From sequence record ON528739: 64,000 nucleotides of DNA; one strand, given 5' to 3'. Positions 11,008 to 49,760 of the stretch are shown here, in pieces. Both the position numbers and the translations under genes were made by a program. This DNA comes from Shigella phage ESh29. The notes below the pieces were generated by a model, which made no database searches, was not told where the DNA came from, and saw nothing but the letters and a program-made list of their open reading frames with translations. Every line of letters begins with the position of its first letter. The stretch's first letter is position 1.

Positions 11008-11011
11008 TAAT

Positions 11012-11040
11012 GGGGACCTTTCGGTCCCCATATTTTTATT
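11012..11040 (+). terminator. Rho-independent terminator after gene 54
   Basis: GGGGACC-TTTC-GGTCCCC hairpin followed by TATTTTTATTT. Confidence 0.7.
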
Positions 11041-11326
11041 TACGGAATGAAATAAAAGCAGCAACTGAAGCAACTAAACTGTCTTCAATATAAACTTCAA
11101 TTTTTACCGGAGCTTCTGACTCAAATTTACCTGTTACTACACCCTGAAAAATACTTTCAGACTGTTCTGGCTTTGAAAAATTTTCAGAAGGAAAAATTCC
11201 GAACTTTTTATCTGTTCCAAAAATTTTAATAAATTCATCGTAAACTGCTTCATTAAAAGCATTATCAGCAGGAATAACGCCTTCAACTACAAGTTCTTGA
11301 CCTAAAAAGCGTAAAGAAGATTTCAT
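11036..11326 (-). CDS. Hypothetical protein, 96 aa (T4 alt.-3 position)
   Basis: ORF with GAGGAA RBS, downstream of an early-promoter cassette. Confidence 0.5.
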   Translation of the reverse strand: MKSSLRFLGQELVVEGVIPADNAFNEAVYDEFIKIFGTDKKFGIFPSENFSKPEQSESIFQGVVTGKFESEAPVKIEVYIEDSLVASVAAFISFRK

Positions 11327-11357: not shown

Positions 11358-11387
11358 ACTATAACACAACACGAGGGACTTGTAAAC
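11358..11387 (-). promoter_or_regulatory. Early-promoter-like cassette (GTTTAC -35, 18-nt spacer, TATAGT -10), minus strand
   Basis: Minus-strand GTTTAC at 11382-11387 and TATAGT at 11358-11363; about 50 nt near-identical to the cassette at 27131-27184. Confidence 0.55.
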
Positions 11388-13444
11388 TACATTTTGAACT
11401 TTTTAGACATTCCGTTAATGTTAACCAAAGAAGCTAAGATTTGAGAAACTTCGTTTTCCTCTTCTTTTGATTCTTCTACGAGGAATTGATTAAACCCAGC
11501 CATTGGACGAACTTCACCAGTTTCCATCAAATGGTCGCCATCATATACCGATTCTTCTAATTGTTCAGAAGGAGGAACGATTGTGCCTTCAATTAGATAC
11601 TTGTTATAAGCAGTTTCTTTCATCATGTACGTGCTCACTTTATTAATCTTCAGCAAAATTCCACGCGGTAGAATAACTTCAGCTTCTGATGGAAATCCTG
11701 ATAAATGACCTGGAACGATAACTTTGATTCGCTCAGCTCCTTTAATTACCATACCCACGCTAGTTTCAGCATCTTCATTAGCATATGTAGAATGACTACC
11801 CATATGCATTAAATCTTCGGCATCAACAGAACCTTCTCCTTCACCAGAAAATACTGCGCCGGAATCATCTAGAGCCATATAGTTTTTACCATGCTCACCG
11901 AAGATATTTGGTTTAAGCGATGTGGATACGAAGTTCTTGAAATAGAACATTTTATTTTCAATGTTATGACGCAAAGTTTTAAAGGTAACTTCTTGTCCAC
12001 GGTAAAGTGTAGTTCCTGGAGGAAGAACTGAACCTTTAGCGAATGCAGAATCAAGCGTCTCAATATGTTTAATAGCTCGTTCCATATATTCTTCGCGGGT
12101 AGAATCTGGTTTACCCAAAAGGAACGAGTTCATTTCAACATATGAATCTGCACAATAATCTTCAATTACATCAGATTCAGCTTGAGTTAATCCTTTTGGA
12201 GTTACTTCGGTGCTCGCGTATTCATATGCCTGAGCGGCAGATTCATTAATCAATTTATAAATGCCATTCATGACAAATTGAATAATAGCTGTCTTTTCAT
12301 CTGGCGTAGCTTTAGAACCTTTAACTAAATCATTGATAATTTTCTTAATAACATCAAAGCTATTAGAAATATTAATGTCAGCAAGATCGCTTAAAATTTT
12401 ATCAGTTTTATAATCAAAGAATTCTTTATTCTTTAAATATTCTTGAGAACCTTGATATGTTGTATCGCTCTGCAACTTGATAGATGGATCACGTAAACGC
12501 GCATGGGCTAATGCAATATGATTTCGGAAGCTTTCTAGTTCATAATCGTTAGATTTAAAACGAGAAGCACTTCTCATACCACCGATAGCTCCTTTGCCGA
12601 AGTTTGAACCAATCTGAATAACGCCAGAGTTCATTGGTCCTTCTGCTTTATATACCGGAACTTTAGATTCAAGCTCTTGATATTTCTTAGCAGCGAAGCT
12701 ATCACCCTGAAGTGAAGCATCAACAGTAGAATATTGAGCTTGTGCTGCTAATCGACGACTAATTTTAGTTTTCTGAATAACAGCTTGATCCGTGCGCTTA
12801 TCATTTTCCAAAGCAATAGAAGCAGCAACTGCGACAGCTTTAGGAACAGCATTACCTGTTTTAACGTCTACATAAACATCACCAACCTTTGATTCAACTT
12901 TTGTGAATAACTCAGTTGAAATAGGAGGTACACCTGGAATGTCTTCTAAATTGGCATTTTTACGGTAAACCATAATATATGCGTACTTTTTATCATAATC
13001 CCAGATTTCCTTTAAAAGAACATATCGACCTGCTCCTTTAGTACGTACTAAACGGTCAGCAATAACTTGCATTTGACGAGCAGCGCCATTTGTTTTACTT
13101 TTTAGTACGCGGAATAGGCATGCATCAATTTTATACTGTTTCATTGTTTGAAGAGCAGTATCAAAAACCGCATTAATGACACCAATTGGATTTCCACCCA
13201 AGTTTTTAAGCTTGACTAACGATAATTTCTCGTTGACACCTATCATTACGATATGCATCATTTTGTCGCCTGGCTTAACGTTTTTATTTGTATCACCGCC
13301 AGAGGTGTATGTACAAAATCTAAATCCGGGGAGAACGCTTTCTTCACCGGCTTGAATAGCAAAAATTTGAGGTATTTTATGCTTAGGATTTAAGTTAACA
13401 ACCGGCGCCGAAGCGCCGTCAAATAATTCTGTAATAAGTTCCAT
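11387..13444 (-). CDS. Alt-family mono-ADP-ribosyltransferase paralog, 685 aa
   Basis: N-terminal ~230 aa near-identical to the adjacent Alt; R-S-E motifs present (LYRGQ, FVSTSL, EAEVILPRG, YDGDHLMETGEV). Confidence 0.75.
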   Translation of the reverse strand: MELITELFDGASAPVVNLNPKHKIPQIFAIQAGEESVLPGFRFCTYTSGGDTNKNVKPGDKMMHIVMIGVNEKLSLVKLKNLGGNPIGVINAVFDTALQTMKQYKIDACLFRVLKSKTNGAARQMQVIADRLVRTKGAGRYVLLKEIWDYDKKYAYIMVYRKNANLEDIPGVPPISTELFTKVESKVGDVYVDVKTGNAVPKAVAVAASIALENDKRTDQAVIQKTKISRRLAAQAQYSTVDASLQGDSFAAKKYQELESKVPVYKAEGPMNSGVIQIGSNFGKGAIGGMRSASRFKSNDYELESFRNHIALAHARLRDPSIKLQSDTTYQGSQEYLKNKEFFDYKTDKILSDLADINISNSFDVIKKIINDLVKGSKATPDEKTAIIQFVMNGIYKLINESAAQAYEYASTEVTPKGLTQAESDVIEDYCADSYVEMNSFLLGKPDSTREEYMERAIKHIETLDSAFAKGSVLPPGTTLYRGQEVTFKTLRHNIENKMFYFKNFVSTSLKPNIFGEHGKNYMALDDSGAVFSGEGEGSVDAEDLMHMGSHSTYANEDAETSVGMVIKGAERIKVIVPGHLSGFPSEAEVILPRGILLKINKVSTYMMKETAYNKYLIEGTIVPPSEQLEESVYDGDHLMETGEVRPMAGFNQFLVEESKEEENEVSQILASLVNINGMSKKFKM

Positions 13445-13447
13445 GAT

Positions 13448-15544
13448 TTATCCTTGAACGAACTTGTAAGGCATGTTTGTAATATCTATGCAAGACGCAA
13501 TAATTCCAAGAGATGATTCTACTTTCTGTTTAACGTTTGATGAAACAAATGATGCAAAGTCAACTCTGTCTTCTATTTCAATATCACCTGTCATTGCAAC
13601 TACTTCACCGGTTTCCATTAAATGGTCTCCGTCATAGATTATCGATTCGGTGAGCTCTTCCGTGGTCATAACTTCAGCTTGAATGAGTTTTGTATTATTA
13701 GATGTTGTTCCGTCATTATTAGAAGCATCAGTTATTTTATTAATTTTGACCATCAATCCACGCGGTAGAATAACTTCAGCTTCTGTTGCTATTCCGAGAC
13801 TTCCTGGATATACAACATTAACTTTATGAGCTCCATCAATTGCCCATCCTATTTGAACTTTAACGTATTCAGGATTTTCTTTATACGCTCTTATTTCGTT
13901 TGGATTAATAGTTATTCCTTCTTCATTTTTATCAACTGTTAATTCATTGCGAGCTTCTGGTTCTAAAAGACCAATACCAGCATGTGTGATTCCAAAACGT
14001 CCAAAAATGATAGGAGTTAAAGAAGTAGATACAAAATTTCTGAAGTAGAACACTTTATTTTTAACTAACGCTTCATATATAGGAGCAGTCATACTTTGAG
14101 CACGATAAACTGTAATGCCTTCTGGTATACGGTCACCATTTTCAAAAGCTGAATCTAAGTTATTTATAGCAGATTCAATTTCTTTTTCACTCATTACATC
14201 ATATCGTTCTGGATTGTAACGACCTAAAAGAAGATTATTGATGTCAGTATATCCTGAACCGCAATATTCTCTAATGCCACGCTTTTGTGATGGAGTATAT
14301 TTAGAACCATCGCGGGCAATAGTAATATCAATCATTGGACCAGCACCAATTCCAGAAAAACTGTAAATCATTCGTTTGAGGAATTTAGTTTTTGCTGCGT
14401 TCCAGGAATTTTTAGTTATTTCTTCCCAGACTTCATCTGGTTGTCCTTTACGATTTTTATTATGATTAGCAAGCCATTTATCTTTATAATCTTCAAAGAA
14501 TTGATTTACAGCTGCTGCGTATTTCTCTAAACATTTTATTGAAGTAGTTGGTTCATTTTTAATTGCATTAAAAATTACTTCTTTAATTTTTTCTGAAACT
14601 TCACCGACTTGACTCATTGGAAAGAATTTATAATCATAGTGAAGTTCATCTGCCGTTCCTTCAGCAATAATTTTTGCTGCCTTTGTTTTAGAAGCTAATG
14701 AATTAATTCCAAGCTTCATTTCTTCTGCTTCGGGAATTAAAGGTGCAGTAGCTGGTTTATTAAAATTAGCTGCTGTAGATTCATACTTCTGGAATAATTC
14801 ACTTTCAAATCTAGAAGATTCCAATGACTGACTTTGTGCAATTGCTCTGCGAGAAATTTTAACCTTAACGATTACAGCTTGGTCAGAACGTTTATCATTT
14901 TCTTGCGCAATAGATGCAGCAATTGCCTCATTTTTGGTTACTTGAGCTCCAGTATCTTTATTAATATAAACATCACCGACCTTCGATTCAACTTTAGTAA
15001 AGAGTTCAGTGCTAATTTCTGGAACTCCTGGAATGTCTTCTAGTGATACATTTTTACGATGTATAAGAATATATGCATACTTTTTATCATAATCCCAGAG
15101 TTCCTTAAGAAGGACGTATCTGCCACCTGAACGACTGCGGATGAGTCTATCAGCAATAAGTTGAATTTGTCGAGCTTGACCAGCGGTTTTAGACTTAAGA
15201 ATACGAAGCATGCAGGCATCAATTTTATATTGACGCATTGTTTGCATTGCAACAGTAAAAACTGAATTGATATAATTAATCGGGCTTGGACCAAGACCTT
15301 TTAATTTGGCAATTGAACCTTTAGCAGTTAATGTAAAAGGAACGATATGCATCATCTTATCGCCAAGTTTTAGATCTCGGTTTGTATCACCTCCAGATGT
15401 ATAGGTACATAAACGAAAGCCTGGTTGTTCAATTGCATTATCAACATGAACTGAAAAAATTTGTGGTATTTTCTTCTTTGGATTTAAGTTTGTAATCGGA
15501 AGAGTAGTATCTTCGTCAAATAATTCTATAATGAGTTCCATCAT
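13448..15544 (-). CDS. alt: Alt ADP-ribosyltransferase (capsid-packaged), 698 aa
   Basis: N-terminus MMELIIELFDEDTTLPITNL... recognised as T4 Alt; VYRAQ, FVSTSL, EAEVILPRG motifs; late promoter upstream; between 54 and 30. Confidence 0.85.
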   Translation of the reverse strand: MMELIIELFDEDTTLPITNLNPKKKIPQIFSVHVDNAIEQPGFRLCTYTSGGDTNRDLKLGDKMMHIVPFTLTAKGSIAKLKGLGPSPINYINSVFTVAMQTMRQYKIDACMLRILKSKTAGQARQIQLIADRLIRSRSGGRYVLLKELWDYDKKYAYILIHRKNVSLEDIPGVPEISTELFTKVESKVGDVYINKDTGAQVTKNEAIAASIAQENDKRSDQAVIVKVKISRRAIAQSQSLESSRFESELFQKYESTAANFNKPATAPLIPEAEEMKLGINSLASKTKAAKIIAEGTADELHYDYKFFPMSQVGEVSEKIKEVIFNAIKNEPTTSIKCLEKYAAAVNQFFEDYKDKWLANHNKNRKGQPDEVWEEITKNSWNAAKTKFLKRMIYSFSGIGAGPMIDITIARDGSKYTPSQKRGIREYCGSGYTDINNLLLGRYNPERYDVMSEKEIESAINNLDSAFENGDRIPEGITVYRAQSMTAPIYEALVKNKVFYFRNFVSTSLTPIIFGRFGITHAGIGLLEPEARNELTVDKNEEGITINPNEIRAYKENPEYVKVQIGWAIDGAHKVNVVYPGSLGIATEAEVILPRGLMVKINKITDASNNDGTTSNNTKLIQAEVMTTEELTESIIYDGDHLMETGEVVAMTGDIEIEDRVDFASFVSSNVKQKVESSLGIIASCIDITNMPYKFVQG

Positions 15545-15564: not shown

Positions 15565-15572
15565 TATTTATA
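15565..15572 (-). promoter_or_regulatory. Late promoter TATAAATA (minus strand) for alt
   Basis: Plus-strand TATTTATA about 21 nt upstream of the alt ATG. Confidence 0.55.
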
Positions 15573-15578
15573 AAATTA

Positions 15579-15597
15579 AAGGCCCGAAGGCCTTTAA
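15579..15597 (-). terminator. Hairpin / terminator candidate between the 62-aa ORF and alt
   Basis: AAAGGCCTTCGGGCCTTT hairpin followed on the minus strand by AATTTTAT. Confidence 0.5.
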
Positions 15598-15782
15598 TAA
15601 TCTATTGGTAAGAGAGTACGATATATTTCAAACTTTGGACCTTTTTCATAAGCATCAAAAGTTTCTGTGAATTTATTATAAGCATATGCATCTACAAATT
15701 CGAGAATGACTTGTGATACAGAAGTAGAAACATCTCCACCTTCTTTTTGAGCAATGACAATTGTTTCTAAGTAAGCTTTCAT
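15594..15782 (-). CDS. Hypothetical protein, 62 aa
   Basis: ORF coupled (ATGA overlap) to the DNA ligase stop. Confidence 0.5.
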   Translation of the reverse strand: MKAYLETIVIAQKEGGDVSTSVSQVILEFVDAYAYNKFTETFDAYEKGPKFEIYRTLLPIDY

Positions 15783-45960: not shown

Positions 45961-48927
45961 ATGGCTACTTTAAAACAAATACAATTTAAAAGAAGCAAAA
46001 CTGCAGGTCAACGTCCTGCTGCTTCAGTATTAGCCGAAGGTGAATTGGCTATAAACTTAAAAGATAAAACAATTTTCACAAAAGATGACTCAGGTAGTGT
46101 TATAGAATTAGGTTTAAAATATGGAGGAACAATTGATGGTTCTTTAACTGTTAATGGAAGCATAATTGGAAATTTAACAGGTAACGCTGCAACCGCAACG
46201 AAATTGCAAACACCTAGGAAAATTAATGGTATATCTTTTGATGGGTCAAAGGACATTACCCTAACTCCATCTGACATAAATGTCAATAGCACAACATTTA
46301 TAAAAAATAATGGCGAATTACCTACTAATGCTAATTTAGATGAGTATGGGCCCATTGAAGAATATCTTGGTGTTTGGTCGAAATCTACTTCAACAAATGC
46401 GCAACCAGCAAATAAATTTCCAGAAGAAAATGCCGTAGGTGTACTAGAAGTATTTGTTGCCGGCCAATTTGCTGGCACTCAGCGTTATACTGTAAGATCT
46501 GGTAACGTCTATATTCGTTCCTTATCTGCTAAATGGAATGGCGTCGATGGTCCATGGGGTCCGTGGCGCAATATTCAAACTGGCACACGTCCACTATCAA
46601 CTACGCTAGACTTGAATACTTTGGGTGATGCTTCTCATTTTGGGTTATGGCGAAATAGTTCAAGTGCCATTGCAACATTTTCTCGAAATTACCCAGAAGA
46701 AGGTGGTCTCGCGCAAGGTCTTTTAGAAATTTATGAAGGCGGTAACTATTCTCGTACACAACGTTATACTACCCGAATGGGTGTTGTATATGTTCGTTGT
46801 CTTGCTGGCGCATGGGATCCAGAAGCTCCGAATTGGGGAGAGTGGCAACAAGTAGGTATGGTTACTCCCAGCACATTCTATGACGGAGATCTGAATGATT
46901 TTAAAACTCCTGGGTTATATAATATTTTAGGCACTGATGCCGTTATTAACTGTCCTACCGGTGAAGGTTTGCCGACTGTTATTGTTGGTTTGCTGGAAGT
47001 TAAACAGCGTGCTTCTGGCGGTGCTATTTTCCAAAAATTTACTACTGCCGGAACGGGTGCAACTACTCGCGATCGTATTTTTGAGCGTGCATATACTGGT
47101 GGTGTGTGGGGTGCATGGAACGAAGTATATACATCTTATTCTTTGCCAATTACTTTGGGTATGGGTGGTATTAAAACTCAATTAGCGGAGCTAGATTGGC
47201 AAACATTTGATTTTGTTCCTGGTAGTATGTTTAGCGTTCCTTTGAACAAAATAAAGAACATGCCAGCAAATATGAATTGGGGTACGATTGACGGAAACTT
47301 GGTTATGTTTTCTGTCGGTCCTAGCGAACACACCAGCACAGGACGTACTGTTCAGGTTTGGCGTGGTACTGTATCCCAGACAAACTACCGTTATTTTGTC
47401 GTTCGTGTGTTCGGTAATTCTGGAAATAGAACTTGCACAGTTCGCCGTGTTGTTCTTGAAGACGGATCACATACTTGGACTGCTCAACAAGATTTTAATG
47501 GTGCTGTTAGCTTTGGTAGTTCAACAACGTTTAAATCAACTACAACATTTAATACAGAAGTTAAATTTCGCTCATTGAATGCATTCCGTATGTATGGCGG
47601 AAAATTTGGTACATTTTTACGTAATGATGGAGAGAGTCTTTATATTCTTTCCACCGACGAAGATGATCAAGATGGAAACTTTAATACAAATAGACCTTTC
47701 CGTTATGAATTAAGAACTGGTGATGTTACTTTGGGTGGTGTTAGTGGTGCTAACGTTTTAAAACTAAAACGTGATTCTCTCACCGCATTTTTTGGCGGTG
47801 ATATTAATATGAAAGGCTTGCTGACTTTTGACGCCGGACGTTTAGGATCACGAGATTATTTTAAATTTAACCATTGGGGTGATAGTAATAATGCTCGTGA
47901 TAACATCATCCAGTTAGAAGATAGCAAAGGCGTTCATTTTTCCACTGAACGTACTTTAGCGACTGGTGCAATTAAGACTAAATTTTTTGGTGAAGTTGAA
48001 TCCGATGGACGATTGATTATTAAACGTCCGGGTGATTCTATTGTATTATCAGCACCTGCTAGTAATTCTTTGCATATTCGTGGTGACGTAGACGGGACTG
48101 GTAACTGGTATATTGGTAAGGGTGGTGATGATAATGGATTAGCGTTCTATAGTTATGCTACTAATGCTGGTGTATACATTACAAACGCAGGAGATATCTC
48201 GCTAAGTCCAAAGGGTGCCGAAATGGCTCAGGTCAATAACGTTCGATTATATGTTCATGGTGAACGTTGGACCGCTAGTCAACCAGGTGATTGGGGTAGT
48301 CAGTGGCAAGTGGAAGCGCCAATATTCGTCGATCATGGTTATGTTTCACAGGATTGTTATTATCCAATTATTAAAGGAAGAAGTGTAATCACCAATCAAG
48401 GGTTTGTAACTGCCGTCGATCTTGGTATTCGTCGTGTCCCTGACAATTGGGGGCAAGCAATTATTCGTGTTGGATCTGCAGAGGCTTCACCAGCGGCTGG
48501 ACACCCTAACGCGGTATTTGAATTTCATTACGACGGTACTTTCTATTCTCCTGGTAATGGTAATTTTAACGATGTGTATATTCGTTCCGATGGTCGACTT
48601 AAGATCAATAAAGAAGAGTTAGAAAACGGAGCACTTGAAAAAGTATGCCGACTGAAAGTTTATACATACGATAAGGTTAAGTCTATTAAAGATCGTAGTG
48701 TTATTAAACGTGAAGTTGGTATTATTGCTCAGGATCTTGAAAAAGAATTATCAGAAGCTGTATCTAAAGTTGAAGTTGATGGATCTGATGTTCTGACAAT
48801 TTCTAACTCCGCTGTGAATGCTCTTTTAATTAAGGCCATTCAGGAAATGAGCGAAGAAATTAAAGAATTGAAAACGCCTTTCTTCACTAAAATTGCTCGC
48901 AAAATTGGTAAATACTTTAAATTCTAA
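45961..48927 (+). CDS. 37: Long tail fibre distal subunit gp37, 988 aa
   Basis: Size and synteny; followed by a glycine-rich gp38. Confidence 0.9.
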
Positions 48928-48959
48928 CAACAAGGGGCATTGCCCCTTTGGAGAAAATT

Positions 48960-49760
48960 ATGGCAGTAGTTGGTGTTCCTGGTTGGATTGGAAGTTCATC
49001 CGTAAATGAAACAGGACAACGATGGATGAGTCAAGCGGCTGGTCAATTAAGATTGGGTGTTCCTTGCTGGATGAGCCAATTCGCCGGACGCTCAAGAGAG
49101 ATTATTCATACCGTAACAGCAAACCATAACTTTAATGGTCAATGGTTCCGCGACCGTTGCTTTGAAGCTGGCGGTGCACCCATTGTATTCAATATTGTTG
49201 GTGATATCGTTTCTTATTCTAAAGATGTGCCACTTTTCTTTATGTATGGGGATACGCCTAATGAATATGTTGTTCTTAATATTCATGGTGGTGTTCATAT
49301 GTGGGGTCGTGGTGGTAATGGTGGATACACTCACTCAGGAGGCGACGGTAACGGTACACAAGGCGGTCATGTTATTCAAAATGATATCGGTGGACGGCTT
49401 CGTATTTGGAACTATGGTGTTATAGCTGCTGGCGGCGGCGGCGGCGGTGGTATTGCATATCGTCCACACTCAGGGGCAAACTGGCAAGATATCGGTGGCG
49501 GTGGTGGTCGACCTTTCGGTGGTGCTGGCGGTGGCGGTTATTCCGGTGGTGCTGCTTCGTATGAAGGTCCGGGTGGTGGTTATGACTATGGTAACGCACA
49601 CTCCGGCGCTGGTGGTAATGCTGGTGCTGCTGGTCAGAATGCATGGTCTGACGGCGGTAAAGTTCTTAAAGTTGGTGTTGGTGGTGCGTCTGGTCATGCA
49701 GTGTTTGGGTCTTCTCCAACTTGGGGTGCTGTTGGAACAATTTACGGACCAAGAGTATAA
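48960..49760 (+). CDS. 38: Tail fibre tip adhesin gp38 with glycine-rich motifs, 266 aa
   Basis: ATG at 48960 after GGAG (track ORF 48948 begins at TTG); several poly-Gly blocks separated by variable segments. Confidence 0.8.

Follow-up and report, generated by a model that had tools for sequence, protein, structure and literature searches.

The subject of this analysis is a stretch of 64,000 nucleotides (nt) from Shigella phage ESh29 (sequence record ON528739; hereafter the window, given as one strand), in which two genes for Alt-type ADP-ribosyltransferases (ARTs), alt and alt.-2, stand in tandem on the minus strand. The phage is a Tequatrovirus, and the top DNA match to the locus region was 97.6%. 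The neighbours of the tandem are alt.-3 and gene 54 at one end and alt.1 and the DNA ligase gene (gene 30) at the other. It consists of the following elements:

13448..15541, minus strand: alt, 697 amino acids (aa), ortholog of T4 Alt; the listed open reading frame (ORF) begins one ATG earlier, at 15544
11387..13444, minus strand: alt.-2, 685 aa, second Alt paralog and ortholog of altB of phage IME08
13445..13447, minus strand: spacer atc of 3 nt between the alt stop codon TAA and the alt.-2 ATG, read from the sequence as TAA-atc-ATG

The ORF listing gave 698 aa for the upstream frame (13448-15544) and 685 aa for the downstream frame (11387-13444), and both frames were intact. Together with the TAA-atc-ATG junction, this bore out the description, in an earlier note on this DNA, of two intact minus-strand Alt ORFs lying 3 nt apart. 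The start region of alt, ATGATGGAA, contains two consecutive ATG codons (ATGATG) in a context identical to that in phages T4, RB14 and T2, all of which are annotated from the second ATG. As the numbering of the ITE-6 cleavage site known from mass spectrometry of T4 also fits this start, the second ATG at 15541 is most likely the true start of alt, giving a protein of 697 aa. alt.-2 has its own Shine-Dalgarno sequence, AAGGA, within the final alt codons, and the alt/alt.-2 junction is the same in RB14, T2 and T4. A tblastn search of the window with either Alt protein, in which modA and modB were not used as queries, detected no third Alt-like gene.

Family and divergence of the two Alt proteins

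Both proteins were assigned to the Alt family with high significance. The Pfam domain PF03496 (ADPrib_exo_Tox; gathering cut-off, 23.4 bits) was matched by alt with 130.6 bits (E 6e-38) and by alt.-2 with 72.8 bits (E 3e-20), and PHROG 802, 'Alt-like RNA polymerase ADP-ribosyltransferase', was matched end to end with E values of 1.8e-270 and 5.2e-256, respectively. The precomputed domains of homologs were the pair PF26846 and PF03496, and the RefSeq name for both genes is also 'Alt-like RNA polymerase ADP-ribosyltransferase'. NCBIfam had no model for Alt or Alt.-2.

The catalytic residues of R-S-E ARTs are present in order in both proteins, namely R480, S505-T-S507 and E587-A-E589 in Alt, and R482, S507-T-S509 and E587-A-E589 in Alt.-2. 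They lie in the motifs YRAQ (from residue 479) and YRGQ (481), FVSTSL (503 and 505) and EAEVILPRG (587 in both) of Alt and Alt.-2, respectively, as had been pointed out before. A fourth motif assigned to the same signature, YDGDHLMETGE (636 and 634), did not belong there, as described below. In an alignment of 22 family members the Arg / Ser-Thr-Ser / Glu-x-Glu pattern was invariant, including R482, S507, S509, E587 and E589 in Alt.-2 numbering. Arginine-specific ARTs are associated with a catalytic motif of the E-x-E form, and T4 Alt is an arginine ART that modifies the alpha subunit of RNA polymerase and many other proteins, including MazF. We infer from the ExE motif and the homology to T4 Alt that Alt and Alt.-2 are active arginine-type (R-S-E, ExE) mono-ADP-ribosyltransferases of about 76-78 kDa each.

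The structural comparison agreed with this assignment. A single-sequence search of PDB sequences with Alt.-2 gave no match at E <= 0.01, and a search with the family profile retrieved the C3-like, CPILE-a, Certhrax and Vis ARTs; the family of this pair has the ART fold. The AlphaFold2 model of Alt.-2, built from the 22-sequence alignment (mean pLDDT, the per-residue confidence score, 74; pTM, the overall fold score, 0.61), comprises an alpha/beta N-domain (about residues 12-215), a helical region (about 250-470) and a C-terminal ART domain. In Alt, likewise, the N-domain (about residues 7-240) is conserved and is followed by a variable helical region and the R-S-E ART domain. This full-length architecture was found in both proteins, and their pairwise alignments were collinear. 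The bacterial R-S-E toxins (Vis, C3, iota/CPILE-a, VIP2, Certhrax and SpvB) resemble them in the ART fold and in the residues R, STS and ExE that bind NAD, but only their C-terminal 200 aa or so correspond to the Alt proteins, with 14-25% identity, and none of them has the N-domain and helical region of the phage proteins or propeptides removed by a protease. T4 ModA and ModB belong to the same R-S-E ART clade as Alt (PMC5512222, PMC9503650). They are described as early-expressed, non-packaged proteins of about 200 aa without the Alt N-domain and propeptides.

The two full-length proteins predicted for the locus were thus recognised as distinct lineages, in that window Alt was 70% identical to T4 Alt and 66% to AltA of the Dhakavirus IME08, but only 41% to Alt.-2 over the full length (BLASTP, E 4e-158). 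Alt.-2 was in turn 99% identical to its counterparts in phages G3F9 and RB14, and 48% to IME08 AltB versus 32% to AltA. Reciprocal best similarity, conserved position and identical gene order all supported separate alt and alt.-2/altB lineages. The N-terminal 230 aa had been called near-identical; the region is conserved, with 154 of 230 residues (67%) identical, but the description was too strong. The noted divergence of the central and C-terminal regions was confirmed: the helical regions share 19% identity and the ART domains 34%, with 12-40% identity and indels in the STS-ExE loops.

At the DNA level the N-terminal parts shared 66.7% identity with a saturated synonymous divergence (dS) of 1.6, and the longest exact tract common to the two genes was 29 nt, at the ExE motif. 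These values led us to reject recent gene conversion as the source of the N-terminal likeness. The duplication is old, as indicated by the saturated dS, the short exact tract and the AltA/AltB orthologs in Dhakavirus; the pairing of AltA with alt (66%) and of AltB with alt.-2 (48%) places it before the split of Tequatrovirus and Dhakavirus. Among the window, RB14 and T2 orthologs, the ratio of nonsynonymous to synonymous divergence (dN/dS) was 0.03-0.04 for alt.-2 at a dS of about 0.19, and 0.07-0.10 for alt, demonstrating that alt.-2 is under strong purifying selection.

The upstream gene is, by sequence and place, the positional ortholog of T4 alt. T4 Alt (NP_049811), a head-packaged NAD+--arginine ADP-ribosyltransferase, has the same R-S-E motifs and the same two sites for the prohead protease gp21 as window Alt; the two proteins differ in length by 15 residues and the window protein has IIE, not ITE, at the N-terminal site. 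Their similarity is mosaic. Identity is about 98% over the first 240 aa and about 92% over the last 77 (alignment columns 651-727), with about 98% for both terminal modules in a further pairwise alignment, whereas codons 241-620, covering the central helical and catalytic parts, show 26-63% aa identity and represent a deep alternative allele. The corresponding nucleotide identities of the N-terminal, central/catalytic and C-terminal parts are 94%, 52-67% and 95%. The identity of window alt was 99% with the RB14 gene and 96.7% with the T2 gene.

Several observations on this allele stand beside the main comparison. The divergent part occupies window positions 13682-14821 (codons 241-620), between modules of 94-95% identity. 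Dhakavirus AltA is closer to the window-type Alt (66%) than to T4 Alt (47%). About 292 records carry the window type of alt and about 211 a type with 60-80% identity, while alt.-2 is essentially one allele. This pattern suggests that cassette exchange or diversifying pressure has acted on alt and not on alt.-2.

Prevalence of the tandem and the origin of the T4 short ORFs

The tandem proved to be widespread. alt.-2 was detected by tblastn at no less than 95% aa identity in 396 phage records, including T6, and T2 also has it; at least 80% of the whole 4.8-kb locus was covered in 362 of 544 records. In a metagenome-scale collection, the 90%-identity protein cluster containing the Alt.-2 sequence had 772 members. 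The second Alt gene has been annotated in RB14 (alt.-2, YP_002854530), T2 (as 'alt.-1', AYD82791), T6 (a homolog), IME08 (altB, YP_003734338) and 44RR (ORF187c), and IME08 carries the same tandem under the names altA and altB. The RB14 and T2 genes have the same position, length and 3-nt junction, and their products are 98.5-99% identical to that of window alt.-2, which shows no material difference from the annotated second Alt genes of its relatives. Judging from these genomes, most Tequatrovirus phages, T2 and T6 among them, have the tandem, and it occurs also in Dhakavirus.

In T4, as the earlier note had stated, a single alt is followed by short ORFs, alt.-1 (61 codons) and alt.-2 (67 codons). 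These ORFs (NP_049810 and NP_049809; PHROGs 23015 and 15247) are the same gene as window alt.-2, of which residues 1-56 and 55-116 match them at 95-98% with collinear flanks. The DNA alignment of the T4 region with window alt.-2 was collinear except for a 1-nt deletion in an A-run and one clean deletion:

11398..13096, minus strand: segment of alt.-2 missing in T4, 1,699 bp, between 9-bp direct repeats CTAAAAAGT

The deletion takes out the whole helical and ART part, which is intact in the window copy. The deletion junction and the frameshift are the same in T4, Shigella phage TB004 and phage F25, so the loss in these phages was one ancestral event, and independent recurrent deletions of alt.-2 were rejected for the three. 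A 161-nt probe spanning the junction was fully covered in 91 phage records and split in the rest.

The two alleles of alt were found with both states of alt.-2. The window-type alt occurs with an intact alt.-2 in the window, RB14 and T2 and with the deletion in F25, and the T4-type alt occurs with an intact alt.-2 in G3F9 and with the deletion in T4 and TB004. As all four combinations exist, recombination has shuffled the alleles of alt and alt.-2. The comparison indicates that T4 represents a derived minority state, and that the window represents the common ancestral state. The tandem had been presented in the earlier note as out of the ordinary unless it turned out to be standard in all T-even phages including T4. 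It is indeed the arrangement of most T-even phages, and the short ORFs of T4 are its deleted remnant, but T4 itself has lost the full-length copy.

The tandem as such is already known, since hundreds of genomes are annotated with it, and the T4 record and the literature have noted the paralogy with T4 alt.-1 and alt.-2 from 2003-2006 onwards. In the T4 record, alt.-1/alt.-2 are explained by an old duplication that covered the beginning of alt, and Nolan et al. (2006) listed them as alt paralogs and noted a full-length duplicate in phage 44RR (PMC1524935). What is added here is the exact origin of T4 alt.-1 and alt.-2, the counts of intact and deleted loci, the purifying selection on alt.-2 and the conservation of both protease sites.

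Transcription signals and predicted prohead protease sites

The following transcription signals were found at the locus:

15585..15602, minus strand: terminator-like hairpin AAAGGCC-TTCG-GGCCTTT with a T-rich tract, ending the gene 30 / alt.1 unit just upstream of alt
15565..15572, minus strand: late promoter box TATAAATA of T4 type for alt, an exact match in the same context as in T4 alt
14161..14168, minus strand: second exact TATAAATA, within the alt coding sequence (codon 458, AINNLD)
11358..11386, minus strand: sigma-70 / T4-early-like promoter for alt.-3 (TTTACA, 17 nt, TATAGT, with TG), directly adjoining the stop codon of alt.-2
11010..11031, bidirectional: terminator hairpin separating alt.-3 from the convergent gene 54, the first minus-strand terminator-like site downstream of alt

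The hairpin at 15585-15602 was called from its sequence and its fold, as the promoter and terminator scan did not list it; its RNA folding energy was -14.5 kcal/mol (z = -3.4) and its context is identical in T4, RB14 and T2. The late promoter box of alt follows immediately after it, 21 nt before the ATGATG start, and the terminator, late promoter, Shine-Dalgarno sequence and ATGATG context are all as in T4. T4 alt behaves as a late gene, with its transcript at t7 and its protein at t8 (PMC9697503).

It had been stated that only the upstream copy has a late promoter. The box before alt agreed with this, but the second exact copy inside alt did not. The latter lies 717 nt upstream of the alt.-2 start and is kept in RB14, T2 and F25 but absent from T4. 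The box may serve alt.-2 as a late promoter within alt, or it may be a chance match or codon-choice coincidence, since TATAAATA is not enriched across the window (12 observed versus 8.7 expected). The terminator scan found no minus-strand terminator-like site between alt and 11031. The single late-promoter context, the 3-nt gap with its own Shine-Dalgarno sequence and the absence of a minus-strand terminator before 11010-11031 favour the co-transcription of alt and alt.-2.

The ends of the two proteins bear on their packaging. T4 Alt is cut by gp21 at ITE-6 and LTE-619 (PMC5694885), which takes 6 N-terminal and 63 C-terminal residues off the protein (PMC5694885, PMC9026906). Each head contains about 40 copies of T4 Alt (PMC5694885; PMC9026906), and its presence in the virion and its injection with the DNA are documented (PMC9503650, PMC9026906, PMC5694885). 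Sites predicted for gp21 were found at homologous positions in both window proteins, IIE-6 and LTE-632 in Alt and ITE-6 and LEE-631 in Alt.-2. The predicted propeptides are MELIIE and a 65-aa C-terminal segment in Alt, and the predicted C-terminal propeptide of Alt.-2 is 54 aa, which would leave mature proteins of about 70 kDa (Alt) and about 69 kDa (Alt.-2, residues 7-631). The sequence MELIIE (alt residues 1-6, 15524-15541, minus strand) differs by T5I from MELITE in T4, RB14, T2, F25 and G3F9, with the (L/I)-x-E motif preserved.

In the 22-sequence alignment, E6 and E631, the glutamates at the P1 positions of the predicted gp21 sites, and Y634-D-G-D637 were invariant, and the only long low-confidence segments of the Alt.-2 model, 1-11 and 629-685, coincided with the predicted propeptides. 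The YDGDH motif begins 3 or 4 residues past the glutamate homologous to that of LTE-619 in T4 Alt. As YDGDHLMETGE directly follows this glutamate, it lies inside the predicted C-terminal propeptide and is not catalytic. The reassignment of this motif to the predicted propeptide is a contribution of the present analysis, and the propeptide carrying it may be the true head-targeting or auto-inhibitory element of the family. Since both gp21 cleavage motifs are kept in both proteins, co-packaging of Alt and Alt.-2 is favoured and appears plausible.

The remaining observations concern the neighbours. alt.-3 (11036..11326, minus strand; 96 aa, DUF5498 / PHROG 1739) is the final gene before the terminator, and it could be expressed early as well as by late read-through, as it has its own sigma-70 / early-type promoter. 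In T4, mutants with a C-terminal extension of Alt.-3 escape the CmdTAC defence system (PMC11618068). The hairpin at 11010-11031 has a perfect 9-bp stem, and T4 shows compensatory differences in its loop and stem. alt.1 (15594-15782, minus strand; 62 aa) matched Pfam PF24647, 'Phage blade protein', with E 2e-29, and shares 4 nt with the end of the ligase gene. At 45961-49760 on the plus strand, ORFs of 988 and 270 aa lie downstream of tail-fibre ORFs of 1289, 371 and 216 aa; by size and position only, they resemble the gp37 and gp38 adhesin pair of T2/T6 type, not the T4-type pair.

Possible roles of Alt.-2 and their meaning for T-even phages

On this evidence we consider it probable that the locus is the standard ancestral alt region of T-even phages, with two old paralogous ARTs that are expressed together late, packaged in the core, trimmed by gp21 and injected, and that have different substrate ranges. 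A late message would run from TATAAATA at 15565-15572 across the three genes alt, alt.-2 and alt.-3 up to the terminator that follows them, and alt.-2 would be translated from its own Shine-Dalgarno sequence, 3 nt past the alt stop codon. Both Alt proteins would be built into the prohead core, where gp21 would trim each terminus, cutting behind E6 (I-x-E) and behind the glutamate of L-x-E, E632 (Alt) or E631 (Alt.-2), just before YDGDHLMETGE. The trimmed proteins would remain in the head, be injected along with the DNA and, at the very onset of infection, ADP-ribosylate arginine residues of host proteins. The N-domain and propeptides common to both would function in packaging, and the diverged helical region and ART loops would set different substrate ranges. 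The strong purifying selection on alt.-2, together with the retention of both cleavage motifs, makes co-packaging and distinct targets plausible.

The evidence was also weighed for other roles of Alt.-2. It may be a redundant or dosage copy, packaged and injected to act on the same host targets, such as RNA polymerase alpha, at a higher dose or as a back-up. The two proteins do share the catalytic triad, the ExE motif, the domain order and an N-domain of 67% identity, and the loss of alt.-2 in T4 is without a known phenotype. This explanation is nevertheless unlikely, given the low identity of the helical and ART regions (19% and 34%), the indels between STS and ExE, and the separation of the two lineages since before the Tequatrovirus/Dhakavirus split. 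Moreover, each gene is under its own strong purifying selection, a pattern typical of sub- or neo-functionalised paralogs.

We regard as quite unlikely a role of Alt.-2 without injection, either late in the producing cell or mainly as a prohead-core component that is degraded or expelled at maturation, since the N-terminal propeptide, the N-domain and the C-terminal propeptide motif are common to Alt and Alt.-2, with E6 and E631 invariant. Alt.-2 also contains few internal (L/I)-x-E sites (7), and its intact, conserved ART active site argues for an enzyme, with DNA-coupled delivery documented for its paralog Alt. Late expression alone is, however, no proof of packaging, and several T4 core proteins are indeed cleaved to fragments that leave the head (PMC9026906). 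The deletion haplotype in 91 records, including T4, which is paired with both alt alleles, could further mean that alt.-2 is dispensable and on its way to loss, the window copy being merely still unbroken. Such decay is very improbable in view of the dN/dS of 0.03-0.04 at a dS of about 0.19 among the window, RB14 and T2, the intact gene in the 396 records, and the same junction and frameshift in all the losses examined (T4, TB004 and F25), which represent a single event.

Some points weigh against the ancestral, co-injected pair that we prefer. The (L/I)-x-E tripeptide is frequent, occurring 11 times in Alt and 7 times in Alt.-2, and the presence of the motif alone is therefore no proof of cleavage. 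The internal TATAAATA could drive a separate alt.-2 transcript, so that strict co-transcription is not certain. The different substrate ranges are what we infer from the divergence of the helical region (19%) and the STS-ExE loops (12-40%, with indels). The loss of alt.-2 in T4 and the other records with the deletion means that the gene is dispensable for growth on common or laboratory hosts. The literature searched for functional or proteomic work on a second Alt yielded no virion mass spectrometry, activity assay or target list for Alt.-2, but only a comparative-genomics remark from 2006 and T4-only studies; two further papers (PMC7917993, PMC12373910) had no content on Alt.

As a discovery the tandem matters little, and the modest question that it raises is what Alt.-2 modifies and why T4 manages without alt.-2. 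T4, the basis of nearly all Alt biochemistry, is a deletion derivative without the second, predicted packaged, ART, while T2, T6, RB14 and about 400 other sequenced phages retain alt.-2 under strong purifying selection. The conserved cleavage motifs predict residues 7-631, of about 69 kDa, as the mature Alt.-2 protein. As Alt.-2 is retained in most T-even phages and lost in T4, it should be included in work on injected effectors, on host ADP-ribosylation and on the differences in defence sensitivity between T4 and T2/T6. We tentatively propose, as a possibility somewhat short of even, that Alt.-2 is a second co-injected arginine ART with host targets unlike those of Alt, for example a defence or stress-response protein and not RNA polymerase. 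If this is true, the absence of Alt.-2 from T4 has hidden part of the immediate-early host-takeover programme of T-even phages, and Alt.-2 would add to the differences between T4 and T2/T6 on wild hosts.

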